Assembly: GCA_043826455.1 (NCBI GenBank)
Contig: JBDRQD010000048.1
Location: forward strand, 128,001 to 192,000
Length of the DNA stretch: 64,000 bases
Direction of reading: 5' to 3'
Origin: Candidatus Bathyarchaeota archaeon
GTDB taxonomy: Archaea; Thermoproteota; Bathyarchaeia; TCS64
Shown: positions 30,001-42,000 of the stretch, one piece after another
How the letters are laid out: the number at the start of each line of letters is the position of its first letter
Position numbering within the stretch: position 1 is the first letter of the stretch
Program-made: the position numbers

Positions 30001-33000
30001 CCTACTGTGGGTGCCCGTGGTGATCCCTATGGTTTTGACGCCGGCACCGATGCCCGCCGTGAGGCCCACGGTGGTGTCGTCCACGAAGATGGCCCTCTCT
30101 CTGGGTACGCCAAGCCTCTCCAGAGTGAGGTTGATCATGTCGGGGGCCGGCTTGGGGTTGGGCACATCCATGAAGCCCACCAGCAGGTTGAAACTGTCCC
30201 GCACGCCCAGCAGCGTGAGGATGCGGTCCGCCTCGGTGTTGGTCTTGTTGGTGGCCAGGCTCTGCATGTAGCCCCGGGCCTTCAGGGTCTCCAGGGTCTC
30301 AGCCACATCTGGCAGCAGCCTCGTGTGCTCTATGTCCTGCTCCTGGAAGTGGGCGATGTACCTGTCCCGCAGCCTCCACACGTCTGGGCGATGCTCCTCC
30401 GGCAGCAGCTCCCTCAAAATTTCTATGAGGCTGTACCCGATGCGGCTCACCACTTCCTCCGGGTTCAGGGGCTCACCTATCTCCCTGAAGGTGAGCCTGA
30501 AGCTGTTCACTATGGCCTGGGTCGCGTCTATGAGCACCCCGTCCAGGTCGTAGATGACCAGGTCCACGCCCTCAAGCATGCCTCTAGGGGCGCGTCGGCC
30601 CCTTAAACCAGTTGTGAAGAAAAGGGGCCAGGGGCTGAGCTACTTGCCCTTGGGGAGATTGTAGAGGACCCTGGCCCTGGCCCTATCCAGCTCCCTGATG
30701 GTGGCCCCCAAGTCCATCTTGGCGGGCTCTCCCAGCCTGCTCCTGATGTAGCTGAGGCTCACTATCTGCTGGTTGAAGTTGATGGTCATCTCGGGGCTCA
30801 GGTAAGTGATCTCCGCGCTGCCGAAGCTGTCCGGGAACAGTGTCCTGTAGTTCTCCTCCCACCTGATGTGGTCGTCCAGGCCGCTGTGGTTCCCGAATAT
30901 CAGCATGTTGTACTTCTCGTGGATGGTCTGGATGGCTATGGGTATGCTGGGGTCTATGATGATCTCGTTGAGTATCCTCTCGTCCAGCCTCCTAAACTGG
31001 ACAAGCATGTAGGTGAGCAGGTAGTTGGGGGGTACGAAGAAGTTGGGGAACCTGCACACGGGCATCGCCAGCAGCCTCTCCTGCACCAGGAGGTCGATGC
31101 GCTTCTCCACGGTCTTCCTGTGGAGGCCCGTCCTCTCGCACAGGAGAGTGTGGTTGGTCTTGACGCCCTTGCCGTTCACCAGGCACCTGATGATGTCCAG
31201 GTCCAGCTCGTCAAGGTCGTAGCCCCGCAGCTTCACAGACCCATTCCTGTTGTAGTCCTGCTCTATGAGGTTGATGCCCGTGCTGGGGTTGTACTTGATC
31301 ATGAGCTGGTTGCTGAAGTAGGCCGTGCTGGACTTGAAGTGAGAGTACTCCTCGTCCACCCCGTAGCTGATCTCCAGGATGCTGGGGATGCTGCTCATCC
31401 ACAGCTGGTAGTTGGTGATGTTCTCATGGTAAGTGAAGAGCAGAGTGTCGTACTCCCCCTGCCGGGACCTGAAGGCCGCGAATATCTGGGGGTCCTCGGT
31501 GATCCACTTGATGATGCCCTTGGTGCAGTCCTTGCAGTCAGGGATGTCCACCTTGATGATGGCCAGGACGGGGTAGACCCTGTAGAGGCCGTGGAAGGGG
31601 TAGATGGGGGGGTCCAGGATGTTGTGCCTGAAGATGGTCTCCACCTTGTTCTTGATGGTGTTCCTGTGCTTGCCCAGAATCCTGGAGAGCTCGCTGATGT
31701 TGACACTCACGGCGTTCCCGGACACCAGCTCCTCCAGGAGCTTCAGGTTATCCACGTCGTCTAGCAGCGGTGACATCTTATCCCCTCCCCTGTGGCACTA
31801 ACTTATACTTTCCCGCCTAATAATTACCATAGTTGGATGATTTCCGAGGGGGGAAAGGTTAACATTTACCCCGTGCGAGCATCTAAACATTTACCATCCC
31901 AACACATACGCTATAGCATTTTTTAACATTTTCGATGCCCACCGTGTAAACCCGGTTTATATCAGACACCCATATAGTATCACCCAGGTGAAGGAGGAAG
32001 GCATGAAAATGGTAGTAAAGGAAAAAGAGGAGCTCGTCTTCTTCGGGCCCGGCCTGAGCACACAGGAGATGGACGTGGAGTTCAAGAAACTCTACGACAG
32101 CCTCATCACGTACAAGGTCAACATCTTCCACCTAGTGGACACCGTCTGCAAGGACTGCGAAGCTGGAGATCGCCTAGCCATGAACATCGCCGAGCGGGAC
32201 AGCGCCCTGCTGCAGAGGCTGGTGGCAAAGGAGTGTGAGCAGAGACGGATGCTGAGGAAGGCCCAGAAGGAGAGCGTCCTGGATCAGCTGCGCGGAAAGG
32301 CCCAGGCGGCCGCTTCCGTGGGCCAGGTCCTTGACGCGAGAGACGAGTCTCTTAAGAATCCGAGTGTGTATAGGAAGTAGATGAAGGGATGCAGGAAATC
32401 ACCGTTAAACAGGTTCAGGACATAGTCCTTGAGACCCAGGCGGACAAGACCCTCCGGAACATGTTCATCCACAAGAGCCCGTGCGCCGGGAGCAGCGTGG
32501 GTGCGGTGTTCTTCGCCATAAGCGGGACGCCGCCAAGGGGATACGCCATGTTCCTGCCGGAGGGAGGGAAGGACACGGGCACCCTACACGTCTTCGACCA
32601 TCTGGGCCTGAAGAGGAAGATCCTGCACTGCAAGATCACCGACCTGGTGAACTACAGGGACAACGACGTCTGGGACGTACAGGCGGCCCAGGTAGCCGTC
32701 GAGGCAAGGTAAGACCAGTGGTAGTCGACGCCACTATAAAACCCCCGGGGAATAACGGTTGAATCCTCAGACCCTCATCGCGGTGAACGTAGGGCTGCCC
32801 GCTGTGGCGGCCCTAGCGTCGCTGATGCTGAACGATAAACGGATACGTACCGGCATCGTTTCCCTAACCTCAATAGTTTTGATTGTTTCATCCATCCTCC
32901 TCTACATGGGGGGTGGAGTGATGTTCTCGCCGGCCCCCGTCATCGAGACGGCGGTCCTGGCGCTGGACTTCGCCTTGTTAGGCTACTTCCTCTTCGTGGG

Positions 33001-39000: not shown

Positions 39001-42000
39001 TGCGGTGCGACCAGTGCCAGGACTGCGAGAGGATATGCCCCTCGGCCGCCATCACGGTGCACGTGGAGGAGAAGACCATCGACTGGGAGCCCTTCAAGTG
39101 CATCTACTGCCACGCCTGCGTCAGGGCCTGCATGCACAAGGCCATAGAGGCCAAGGACAACGTCTCCAGCCCCGGCTACAAGGTAGCCAAGAAGACGTTC
39201 AAGGCCTAGCCCCCGTCTTCACCCAACCTTTTCAGTACCCTGCAGATGTCTAGGCCCAGCCAAAGCTCCCTCTCACGGGTCACAGGCGTGTCCTTCTCCA
39301 CGTCACCAGCCTTGTAGCTTGTGCTCCACAGTCCGTCGGGCCTCTGATGCTCCACTAGCCAGTCCACGGCCCTCCTGATATCCGGGTCGTCCCGGCTGAA
39401 CCCCATCCGTGAGAGACTGTCCAGGCTGGTCACCAGGTTGGGCCACCAGAAAAGGAACCTGACCCAGTAGCCAGGGTCCCTGTACGATGTGTACGCGTCG
39501 GGCTTGAAAAAACGGCTCTTGAGAAGCCTAGCGGCTTGGAGCGCCTCCTCCCTGCGCCGGTACTCGGGGTGGACAGCGAAGGCACGAAGTACCATATCTG
39601 TCCAGTTGTGGCTGAAGGGCTTGGAGCGGTCCGGCTCAAGGGTCTCCCAAGGCCCCGCGGTGGCCCTGAGCCCCGTCGTGCGATCCAGCCTGCGGGTGAT
39701 GAGGGGCACCGTCCAGCCGCCGTCTCCCTGCCTCATGGAGAGAAGCCACTGGAAGCCCCTGCGGATGCGGTGGTCGTCGCCGTAGCCGCAGAGTATTAGC
39801 ACCGCCATGGTCTCACCTGTGTAGTAGGTGGCGTACTGGTCTCCGATGAAACCCCGGAAATCGCCTTCTAGGGTCTGCCAACCGAACATGTACTCGGAGG
39901 CCCTGGCGACGGCCTCGTGGTCCCGGGTGAGCTGGTGCCTCCTGACCAATACCCTGAGAGCCTTGAACGTCTCCACCAGCGCTCTACGCCCCGGCGGGTA
40001 CCCCTCCTCCTTGCCCGAGGGCCTCCAAGAACCGTCGTCCCTCTGCTTCATGAGAATCTTCCTAACCTCCGGTAGACCCCATACCGCCTCTACGGGGCCC
40101 GGATTTTCGCCTAGGATGTCACGCCTAGCGAAGTACGTCACCGCAGCACTCCCTGACGTAGTTAAAGCCTTTAATGGGTCATGTCTCAGCTCATCAAACA
40201 AATCAGTCAAGGCCTGTTAATCACCCACTGAACCCGAGTAGCGGCTCCGAGTTCAGCTAGGTTTAACTCCGATAAGAATCCGGCGCCCGGCTACTTGTAC
40301 TGCTCCTTGTAGGAGGTCTCCTCCAGCATGTCCAGCCGAGCCTCCAGACGGGCCAGGCTCATCTCTATCTTCATCAAACCGTCCCTGAGGCCGTCAGCGA
40401 TCTCCATGAGGGCCACGCTCATCTCCAGGGGCAGGTCCCCCTTCACCTGGTAGAACTCGTCTTGGCTCTTCTTGATGAGGATGACGTTGCTGATCCTGTG
40501 GATGCCCTCGATCTGGGCGTTGAAGCTCTGGAGCTGCTTCTTAGCCTCGTCCAGCAGGGCCCTGTAGTCGCTGAGCTTGAGGTCCTCCCAGGGTGTGTCA
40601 GTCAAGTCGCTCCACCTGAAGCTCCGTTTCACGTAATTTTAAAGGATTCCCCGGGCAAAGGAGGCCGTTTCAGCGTTTTCTCATATTTTTCCCGGGAAAA
40701 ACGTTAACACTGTACAGAGGACCCAAGTTAGTTTTTCGGTAAAATGAAAGTGCCCGAACGGTCTCGTCCCGGAGACGAAGGTTTCCACCGAGCCAAAGCC
40801 CAGCGCTTCCCTCTGAAGCCCGTCTCCGCTTCTCCGCGACCCACTGGTCTTCCGCTTCTTGGGCCCTTGGGTCGCTCCCATTCGGGCAAAACATTATTGT
40901 CCACTTGTCTGTTATAGGCTTGGTGTTGAGTGCCAGCCACAAGCCGGGGCCCGCTGGACACCTAAAACACACAGGTTTTGCGTCAAACATGTTAATAATA
41001 TCCCATCCATCTAGGACAACCAATTTTATAGCTGCCCCCGATCAAGTGCAGCACTCCCACCCCCTAGAATTGTATCGCTCATACATTATTCCCCGGTGAC
41101 TACCCGACACGGGCTAATCTTTTCAACCTGGGGGGAGACACTTAAACTGATGGAGCGCCTCACCAAGGCCCGGCTCAGCAACCTGGACAAGGTCCTGTAC
41201 CCGGAGCTGGGCCTCACCAAGGCCCAGGTCATCGAGTACTACGTCAGGGTCGCGCCCAGGATGCTCCCCTTCCTCAGGGACCGGGCCCTGGTCAGGGCCA
41301 GGTACCCCGACGGGGTAGACGCCGAGGGCTTCTACGAGAAGGACGCCTCCTCCGGAACCCCTGAGTGGGTGAAGACTTATACCAAGTTCAGTGAGAGCTC
41401 GGCCAAGGACACGGAGTACGTGGTCTGCGGCGACCTGGACACCCTCATCTGGCTTGCCAACCTGGCAGCCCTGGAGCTCCACGTCCCCCTGTCAAGGGTG
41501 CCCCTCACGGACATCCCCGACCTGTGCCTCTTCGACCTGGACCCAGAGCCCCCTGCTGGGCTGAGGGAGGCCGTCCAGGCAGTGTTCCTCCTTAGGGAGG
41601 CCTTGGAGGACCTGGGCCTCAAGCCCTACGTGAAGACCTCGGGCAGGAAGGGGGTCCACGTCGTCGTGCCCTTGGAGCCCCTGTACACCTTTGAGGAGAC
41701 CCGGAGTTTTGTTCACAGAATCGGTGTGGGGCTGGCTGAGAACCACGAACTCGTAGTGTCGGAGAGGAGCCAGACCGGGGAGCCTGGGACGGTGCTTGTG
41801 GACTACCCCCAGAACAGTGAGCACGCCACCATGGTTGCCCCCTACAGCCTCAGGGCCATCAGGGAGGCCACCGTAAGCACGCCCCTGGAGTGGGGTGAGC
41901 TGGCTACGCTCAGGCCCTTCGACCACAACATCTTCAACGTGCCTGACAGGCGGAAGGACCCTTGGGGCGGGATGCTGGAGGAGCCCCAGCGGCTGCCTAC

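Follow-up and report, generated by a model that had tools for sequence, protein, structure and literature searches.

The default annotation of an Ech-type enzyme is coupling to ferredoxin, and the accessible part of HydDB names formate, CO or ferredoxin as partners of groups 4a-4i, never NAD(P)H. In the available text of a paper on Bathyarchaeota, the redox balance was left open and the one group 4e enzyme was treated as ferredoxin-using (PMC9534799). For the Mbh-BfuG subunit of Dehalococcoides mccartyi a flavin site 'of unknown function' was described (Schut et al., 2022; PMC9304861), and beyond the accessible text of that paper no literature on this subunit was found. The FAD of StnC and NfnA was reported to be a non-bifurcating NADP(H) site with a Lys where NfnL has a Glu (PMC10482914, PMC12018979), and the significance of Lys or Glu as the ligand was called 'far from clear' (PMC12018979). 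An EchD fusion with an intact NADP site in a six-subunit Ech was not found in the literature searched; figures, supplements and subscription papers could mention one.

Such a fusion is encoded in the window analyzed here, a stretch of 64,000 nucleotides from a Candidatus Bathyarchaeota archaeon, from whose first letter the following positions are counted.

30640..31776, - strand: divergent double-HTH (AsnC-like) regulator (HTH_AsnC-type, E 9e-6, below cut-off)
31988..32380, + strand: upstream ORF of 130 aa, no family
32389..32712, + strand: upstream ORF of 107 aa, no family
32759..34675, + strand: EchA, antiporter-like, 638 aa (Pfam Proton_antipo_M/N)
34675..35538, + strand: EchB, NuoH-like membrane subunit, 287 aa (Pfam NADHdh, E 8e-44)
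35538..35978, + strand: EchC, small subunit, predicted to hold one [4Fe-4S] cluster, 146 aa (Oxidored_q6)
35978..37774, + strand: EchD-flavoprotein fusion P0001, 598 aa
36005..36271, + strand: EchD/NuoC-like domain of the fusion, residues ~10-98
36272..36361, + strand: conserved linker, residues 99-128
36362..36604, + strand: Fe-S domain with C133, C137, C176, C180, C184 and the predicted lysine ligand K199 (codon 36572-36574)
36647..37567, + strand: FAD-binding domain with inserted NADP(H)-binding domain (residues ~318-456, 36929-37345)
37736..37771, + strand: C-terminal RCWRC motif, predicted to complete the second cluster; permuted relative to NfnL/GltD
37767..38879, + strand: EchE, [NiFe] large subunit, 370 aa (Complex1_49kDa and NiFeSe_Hases)
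38880..39209, + strand: EchF, predicted 2x[4Fe-4S] subunit, 109 aa (Fer4)

The six operon genes, adjoining or overlapping on the + strand (32759-39209), carry the expected Pfam domains and agree with the preliminary description of a group 4 [NiFe]-hydrogenase in the order antiporter-like, NuoH, NuoB, fusion, large subunit, NuoI; as homologues of NuoL/H/B/C/D/I they form a single operon. EchA matched MrpA structures (E 7e-52), and its charged residues are kept among 38 aligned sequences (E189 in 37 plus one Asp, H292 in 36, and K267, H378, K382 and K436 in all 38). In EchB, the acidic residues E121, E129, D183, E201 and E211 were each found in at least 95% of 47 sequences, and charged residues of the ion pathway are present in both membrane subunits. 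Invariant are C22, C25, C89, C99 and C119 of EchC (55/55), all eight cysteines of EchF (39/39) and the Ni ligands C68, C71, C356 and C359 of EchE (39/39). The top solved relative of EchE was the MBH large subunit 6cfw (E 5.9e-70). Its L1 and L2 motifs, CGICNIIH and DPCMSCTER, include the CGIC and DPCMSC ligands noted earlier and match published patterns (PMC7886697); an extension at the C-terminus follows L2. HypD and HycI are encoded in the same genome, and in the related locus L045 hypD and hycI lie directly downstream of the operon. Judged from these sequences, the six genes encode a [NiFe]-hydrogenase of the Ech type in which both the Ni ligands and the pumping residues are intact. Unlike the small, stand-alone EchD without cofactors that is typical of Ech, EchD is here fused to a flavoprotein.

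The fusion was confirmed as one open frame without a stop, with the three domains ascribed to it before: Complex1_30kDa at residues 32-96 (E 4.2e-5, 24.5 bits against a cut-off of 22.5), Fer4_20 at 132-209 and Pyr_redox_2 at 226-507. The reported structural matches of the module to NfnA, NfnI and GltD were also recovered, with PDB E-values from 7.6e-97 (NfnA, 9n5u) to 2.8e-44 (GltD). The closest unfused relatives of the EchD domain are stand-alone proteins of ~95-200 aa at the EchD position of unfused ech operons. An AlphaFold2 monomer model had a mean pLDDT of 86 and low confidence in the linker (<50 at residues 99-123), in which K117, G121, P124 and R128 are invariant in 39/39 archaeal fusions. 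The fusion is no assembly accident, because residues 1-141 were matched in 46 of 400 other Bathyarchaeia genomes (E<1e-23; mostly frames of ~600 aa) and because one RNA-library contig from a relative reads across the EchD-flavoprotein junction (35951-36573); an assembly chimera was ruled out on these grounds. Three of 31 class genomes, the figure given before, was thus an undercount. The fusion also occurs in a second class of the phylum and, as a search of bacteria revealed, in bacteria including the cultured D. mccartyi. The full A-B-C-DG-E-F order was found in 38 of 61 fusion loci. On a quick EchE tree the fused label needs three changes (two forced), compatible with one origin of the fusion or with several, and two rows labelled unfused that fell within the fused group of the module tree (P0460, P0461) are probably fragments.

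The comparison of the flavin module covered 288 fusion proteins (271 long and 17 short forms). By sequence as well as by fold, the closest solved proteins are NfnA and StnC (37-40% identity in structural alignments, Foldseek E ~1e-49 to 1e-47). C133, C137, C176, C180, C184 and K199 are invariant (288/288), K199 aligning with StnC K170, and the flavin Arg (R271, equal to StnC R239) and a C-terminal Cys pair (C591/C594, invariant in 39/39) are present. The RCWRC motif aligns with the N-terminus of the NfnI large subunit (5jca) and is in register with StnC/NfnA 565-595. Neither the Glu ligand of the proximal cluster nor the N-terminal RCxxC of NfnL/NfnB was found; K199 and the C-terminal RCWRC stand instead. 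Neighbouring NfnL proteins read IGRLER or IGRIER at the ligand site and are without the C-terminal motif. None of the six operon genes encodes a NfnS partner, nfnS occurring only beside a separate nfnL. The GltD/NfnB assignment proposed before therefore did not stand: by its motifs, the module is of the Lys-ligated, permuted, presumably non-bifurcating StnC/NfnA type. The position of StnC C114, which is not strictly conserved (PMC10482914), reads I, V or A in the fusion. R271 is common to NfnL as well and does not tell the two flavin types apart. NADP(H) is most likely the cofactor, because the long forms carry GGGNxxxD (GGGNSAMD at 361-368) and YRR (385-387); R386 and R387 are kept in 271/271 long forms and N364 in 270/271, and a GxGxxG motif lies at 231-236.

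All 17 short forms are without the inserted NADP domain and 15 of them without R271, and they form a single clade nested among the long forms (FastTree, support 98). BfuB-like and BfuA-like ORFs lie directly upstream of a 462-aa short form (L127) and a broken one (L123), and the NADP site therefore appears to have disappeared where a second input module exists, as seen at these two loci only. Four metagenome loci with long forms (L125, L128, L130 and L131) are free of such Bfu-like genes, and in them the fusion comes after echC. The D. mccartyi protein P0473 (AAW39860; 461 aa) shares 36% identity with P0001 across residues 18-320, reads through the same EchD-module junction and has RCWRC at its C-terminus; it probably corresponds to the 'Mbh-BfuG' of Schut et al. 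(2022; PMC9304861). A derived copy of the fusion was detected in five genomes, nested within one genus (quick tree, support 100). Its EchF and EchC no longer have their N-terminal segments, and all four complete loci are without the membrane arm (echA/echB), so that the soluble part by itself would seem to form a complete enzyme running from flavin to NiFe.

Taken together, genes, motifs, conservation and variants suggest a reversible, ion-translocating NADPH:H+ oxidoreductase in which a built-in non-bifurcating NADP(H) flavoprotein serves as the port of a six-subunit Ech, a reading to which we assign a probability of about 60%. Electrons would pass from NADPH to FAD, to a proximal [4Fe-4S] cluster (three Cys and K199) and to a distal one completed by C591/C594, then through two EchF clusters and the EchC cluster to the NiFe site in EchE, while EchA/EchB would move H+ or Na+. 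The idea, proposed before, that NAD(P)H/H2 exchange may be coupled to ion translocation has support from the sequences. At low H2, NADPH (e.g. from NADP-specific glutamate dehydrogenase) would be re-oxidised and energy conserved; if H2 is higher, or if two ions move per H2, ion-motive force would be spent to form NADPH. Within this reading H2 evolution is the direction held with more, still tentative, confidence, and NADPH supply takes the smaller share. For E'(NADP) of -370 mV and 150 mV, one ion per H2 was calculated to be affordable below 74 nM H2 (range 23-518 nM). For two ions per H2 the calculated crossover drops to 0.02-5 nM and respiration would therefore hardly be possible.

In favour of the NADPH port we count the likeness to NfnA/StnC, the conservation of K199, R386, R387 and N364, the short forms and the armless copy, besides the Ni ligands, pumping residues and HypD/HycI, the H2 energetics, the nfnS neighbourhood and the genomes without PF01512 (see below). 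Of the 16 fusion genomes in genus g2, 10 carry nfnS upstream of echA on the contig that holds the fusion, and gdh-nfnS-nfnL is divergent from echA in L037, L039 and L041. Counted against it are nfnSL upstream of an unfused ech operon too (L135), so that this neighbourhood is not specific to the fusion, the two-ion crossover, the shared R271, the 'far from clear' meaning of Lys versus Glu, Bfu-like genes in two genomes (G017, G198), an EchF that retains both clusters, by which ferredoxin could still dock, and a soluble hydrogenase. The latter, a sulfhydrogenase-like NAD(P) enzyme in the same genome (best matches, below cut-offs) and in 21 of 31 other genomes of the genus (E<1e-140), would bypass the pump if co-expressed.

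The rival that survives best, unlikely in our view, is an ordinary ferredoxin-driven Ech with an appended side port, in which ferredoxin docks at EchF and drives pumping and the flavin draws on the same wire, shunting electrons from ferredoxin or H2 to NADP+ (a three-way node). EchE groups in one clade with unfused six-subunit ech operons from metagenomes (quick tree, support 100), apart from the other group 4 enzymes of the same genome (no named 4e reference included); EchF is intact, HydDB and Buckel and Thauer, in the parts available, give Ech as ferredoxin-coupled, and the linker, flexible in the model, could allow the module to swing aside. However, an open wire from ferredoxin (~-500 mV) to NADP (~-380 mV) would leak energy without pumping, and for these jobs the same genome also has a separate NfnSL and two further group 4 operons in which NuoC is unfused.

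Less probable still is a module that is mainly a relay or docking site for BfuABC encoded elsewhere, giving a Stn/NfnABC-like enzyme on a hydrogenase (NADH + ferredoxin <-> H2 and NADPH). The StnC/NfnA module feeds BfuBC (PMC10482914), the D. mccartyi form inside a Bfu operon retains the clusters without the NADP domain, in G017 the long-form operon is immediately preceded by BfuC-B-A, and in G198 it is immediately followed by NuoE/NuoF-like genes and an 896-aa ORF. In the operon studied here, however, echC abuts the fusion gene with no BfuABC inside, and the sole NuoF-like gene of this genome is on a different contig (C56) with no adjoining BfuA-like ORF. A search for NuoF/BfuB (PF01512) came up empty in 16 of the 39 other genomes of the family that carry the fusion, one of these a single contig and many incomplete, by which an obligatory Bfu partner was ruled out. 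That the FAD bifurcates in the manner of NfnL (e.g. NADPH to H+ plus ferredoxin) is very improbable: homology to NfnL is clear (E 1.6e-70) and R271 is kept in 265/271 long forms, but StnC has the same Arg and is non-bifurcating (PMC10482914), no NfnS-like gene is in the operon, and NfnL-type bifurcation was rejected because the module is of the Lys-ligated StnC/NfnA type in ligand and layout. Hardly credible is a complex that is not an active hydrogenase or prefers NAD(H), a reading left room by a cofactor preference deduced from motifs but opposed by the fit of L1 and L2 to published patterns, by hypD and hycI directly downstream at L045 and by a YRR common to the NADP(H) enzymes StnC, NfnA and NfnL.

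The 130-aa and 107-aa ORFs upstream of echA are conserved together, and the former precedes the operon in related loci, including the armless copy; neither had a match in Pfam, NCBIfam or the ESM Atlas. Longer homologues of the 130-aa ORF in L045 have a CMD domain. The divergent AsnC-like protein, found in an equivalent position in L040, L047, L051, L054, L059 and L064-L066, is a candidate regulator of the operon. Promoter and terminator scans gave hits at chance level (3 versus 2.1 and 5 versus 4.4), and Rfam matched nothing except one tRNA over 26000-46000. At most 14% of the words were present in RNA runs. RNA-library contigs of relatives, which show neither transcription, strand nor level, span ~31835-39174 (four runs, three studies), with mostly empty flanks in three of the four runs.

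If electrons are indeed exchanged with NADP(H), an extra coupling site at ~15-25 kJ/mol would be gained, metabolic models would change for widespread sediment archaea and Dehalococcoidia-like bacteria, and the D. mccartyi flavin subunit would be explained as a relic whose NADP domain was lost. More speculatively, the complex may be a ferredoxin-independent respiratory pump that oxidizes NADPH with protons as acceptor and exports ions, by which fermenting sediment archaea and some bacteria would gain energy from NADPH at nanomolar H2; the EchD fusion would then be the swappable port from which the Bfu-linked form arose by deletion of its NADP domain, along with a form bearing a receiver domain and a soluble NADP hydrogenase made from Ech parts. 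A direct test is within reach, with D. mccartyi in culture and the armless copy of four subunits as a soluble target for expression.

With EchABCDEF (group 4e; Methanosarcina barkeri, clostridia) the complex shares the A-B-C-D-E-F order, the Ni ligands and one antiporter-like and one NuoH-like subunit, whereas its EchD bears a 470-residue FAD/2x[4Fe-4S] NADP(H) module. Modular group 4 enzymes (formate hydrogenlyase, CODH-Ech, Mrp-Mbh variants) likewise feed a hydrogenase core through a substrate-specific module, but theirs are separate genes, mostly with Mrp-type arms. Schut et al. 2013 are said to have reported NAD(P)H modules adjoining Mrp-Mbh clusters. Group 4b can associate with glutamate synthase as electron input (PMC10290634). 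The soluble group 3b NADP hydrogenase, of which this genome appears to have one too, catalyzes the same net reaction NADPH <-> H2 with other subunits and no ion translocation. The large subunit of NfnSL (NfnAB) and GltD have homologous FAD/NADP(H) and Fe-S domains, but with a Glu ligand, an N-terminal RCxxC and a required NfnS. StnC (NfnL-like domain, 8oh5) and NfnA (9bov, 9n5u) share the permuted fold, the Lys-ligated cluster and the FAD/NADP(H) motifs, but there the module sits in NuoG-like subunits feeding bifurcating BfuBC, while here EchD stands at the start, the second cluster at the end and the partner is a membrane hydrogenase. The predicted Mbh-Bfu of D. mccartyi also has six Ech-like genes and one subunit with an extra flavin site; it carries BfuABC inside its operon and a fusion without NADP domain and R271, whereas the archaeal operon is free of Bfu genes and its NADP site is complete.

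All six genes of the Ech-type group that the preliminary description had reported were confirmed in the window, echA to echF at 32759-39209 (+), and the product of 35978-37774 (598 aa) does join an EchD/NuoC domain to a complete FAD/Fe-S module in a single frame. Both Ni motifs of the large subunit EchE are kept, and its closest solved relative in a structure-database comparison was the MBH large subunit. We assign a probability of roughly 0.6 to the reading that the operon encodes an ion-translocating NADP(H):H2 oxidoreductase, predicted to work on an Ech scaffold.

Two conserved small ORFs without a family (31988-32712; 130 and 107 aa) lie upstream of both the full operon and its armless version, and longer homologues at locus L045 carry a carboxymuconolactone decarboxylase domain. 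Convergent on echF, a prenyltransferase/squalene-cyclase-repeat protein is encoded at 39206-40210 (-), which also lies downstream in the close relatives L051-L053. Contig depth was very high in two RNA runs (586 and 1431) at 40643-41000, where the adjoining flank is otherwise empty and no Rfam match was found. Archaeal non-homologous end-joining genes (LigD primase-polymerase, Ku and a ligase with a phosphoesterase domain) occupy 41096-47496.

Matches to fusion residues 1-141 (E<1e-23) were detected in 46 of 400 other genomes of the class Bathyarchaeia. Within the window's family, three genera have the fusion in 20/31, 16/18 and 3/5 genomes, and family f9 has it in 7 of 14; a phylum-wide sample (n=401) added 3 of the 32 genomes of one family outside the class, with the same gene order. 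The full order echA to echF, with the fusion in fourth place, was present in 38 of 61 fusion loci; echA is truncated in one of these 38 (L056), echA/echB are absent in four of the 61, and the remaining loci are contig-end cuts or short forms, which lack the NADP domain. Metagenome contigs also carry six-gene operons with the long form, one copy (L130) adjoining a bacterial EF-Tu. Fusion forms with a response-regulator receiver domain N-terminal to EchD were seen at L130:7285-9477 and in protein P0427 and its relatives (716-727 aa). Fusion proteins are labelled, among others, as Hecatellales, Verstraetearchaeota, Odinarchaeia, Planctomycetota, Dehalococcoidia and D. mccartyi, and most record titles and NCBI labels among close relatives name Bathyarchaeia. 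Three operons (L053, L055, L060) bear bacterial record titles yet nest within the Bathyarchaeia EchE tree, which makes taxon labels on such records unreliable; these are probably mislabelled or misbinned.

When an N-terminal profile was compared with 1.84 billion representatives, the best 150 matches held few fusions, the rest being stand-alone proteins of about 95-200 aa, and in a quick tree one EchE clade contained fused as well as unfused six-gene operons. Two further group 4 operons of the window's genome have an unfused NuoC. A ferredoxin-dependent Ech to which the module adds a side port is the strongest competing account, and a possible one, at about one third of the weight given to NADP(H):H2 oxidoreduction.

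The short forms comprise 17 proteins of 459-474 aa that miss residues about 318-456; they form a single clade nested within the long forms in the tree, and the D. mccartyi cluster belongs to them. Immediately 5' of the short form, BfuB-like and BfuA-like ORFs were found in two loci (L127 and the broken L123), while four long-form loci were without them. In two genomes, Bfu-like genes lie next to the operon; of 39 fusion genomes in the window's family, 16 gave no NuoF/BfuB gene. That the module serves as a docking relay for Bfu proteins is considered unlikely. Judging by the available text on the D. mccartyi enzyme (Schut 2022, PMC9304861), we take its Mbh-BfuG flavin-site subunit to be a putative short fusion, through which the fusion subunit is already partly in print; the literature searched yielded no report of a six-gene form whose NADP site is intact.

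The module had been described as GltD/NfnB-type; the homology holds, whereas the closest type does not, since NfnA of Nfn-Bfu and StnC rank before NfnL and GltD in both sequence and predicted fold. This agrees with the RCxxC pair, which is N-terminal in NfnL but C-terminal in the fusion, and with a lysine as fourth ligand of the flavin-proximal cluster, K199, aligned with StnC K170. R271, aligned with StnC R239, is lost in 15 of the 17 short forms. By homology we infer how individual cysteines would be assigned to clusters. The available text of Kumar et al. (PMC10482914) describes the FAD of StnC as non-bifurcating and places a glutamate at the K170 position in NfnB; that of the T. sibiricus NfnABC paper (PMC12018979) agrees on the StnC-type FAD and the ligand swap, the meaning of which it calls unclear. 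Bifurcation at the FAD of the fusion is accordingly regarded as very improbable.

Conservation was analyzed in 288 of 305 junction-spanning proteins, many of them near-copies, that have at least 440 aa and an RCxxC end (17 were left out), so that the C-terminal cysteines are invariant by construction of the set. C133, C137, C176, C180, C184 and K199 did not vary across the 288, and G361-G363, D368, R386 and R387 are present in 271/271 long forms. The YRR motif is common to the fusion, StnC, NfnA and NfnL, partly for which reason we take it to be the NADP 2'-phosphate site. An inactive or NAD-preferring enzyme is regarded as highly improbable.

For the favoured NADP(H):H2 oxidoreductase, E'(NADP) of -370 to -380 mV and a membrane of 120-180 mV were assumed. 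The computed balance point is 23-518 nM H2 with one ion per H2, which would allow NADPH respiration, and 0.02-5 nM with two, which would give an ion-driven NADP+ reductase; ion stoichiometry decides the direction. H2 in sediment is roughly 1-10 nM. The window's genome encodes two ATP synthase c subunits (contig C38, 7922-8566; contig C55, 78715-78888), one three-hairpin, with motifs that resemble the Na+ type, and one single-hairpin, so that no single coupling ion is assignable.

An operon paralogue without echA/echB is present in five genomes of the genus to which the window belongs:

L046, 7192-11550: armless paralogue
L068, 1202-5554: armless paralogue
L069, 3472-7827: armless paralogue
L071, 6243-10632: armless paralogue
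L049, 607-3751: armless paralogue, ending at the contig edge

In the four complete loci the upstream ORFs are followed directly by echC. EchF is 88 aa long and misses its N-terminal segment, and EchC has an altered N-terminus and loop; after complex I, we assume these segments to be membrane-facing. The armless copy is nested inside the genus in the EchE quick tree, three of the five genomes also have the full operon, and it is a candidate soluble NADP hydrogenase built from Ech parts.

The window's genome further encodes HypD, HycI, a sulfhydrogenase-like enzyme, glycine-cleavage P protein, acetyl-CoA synthase and a separate NfnSL close to an NADP-specific glutamate dehydrogenase. In genus g2, nfnS and the fusion share a contig in 10 of 16 genomes; the same nfnS neighbourhood lies beside an unfused ech in L135. 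Another group 4 operon type (L119:7444-12613, L120:1-2354, L121:85-4171, L122:3873-9049) has an ORF of ~290 aa, HdrB-like by eye, between a NuoC-like gene and the large subunit.

Compared with known systems, the fusion is not an NfnL and the complex is not a member of the Bfu family. It shares most features of Ech, and an Ech-like working is predicted, but its EchD does not stand alone.
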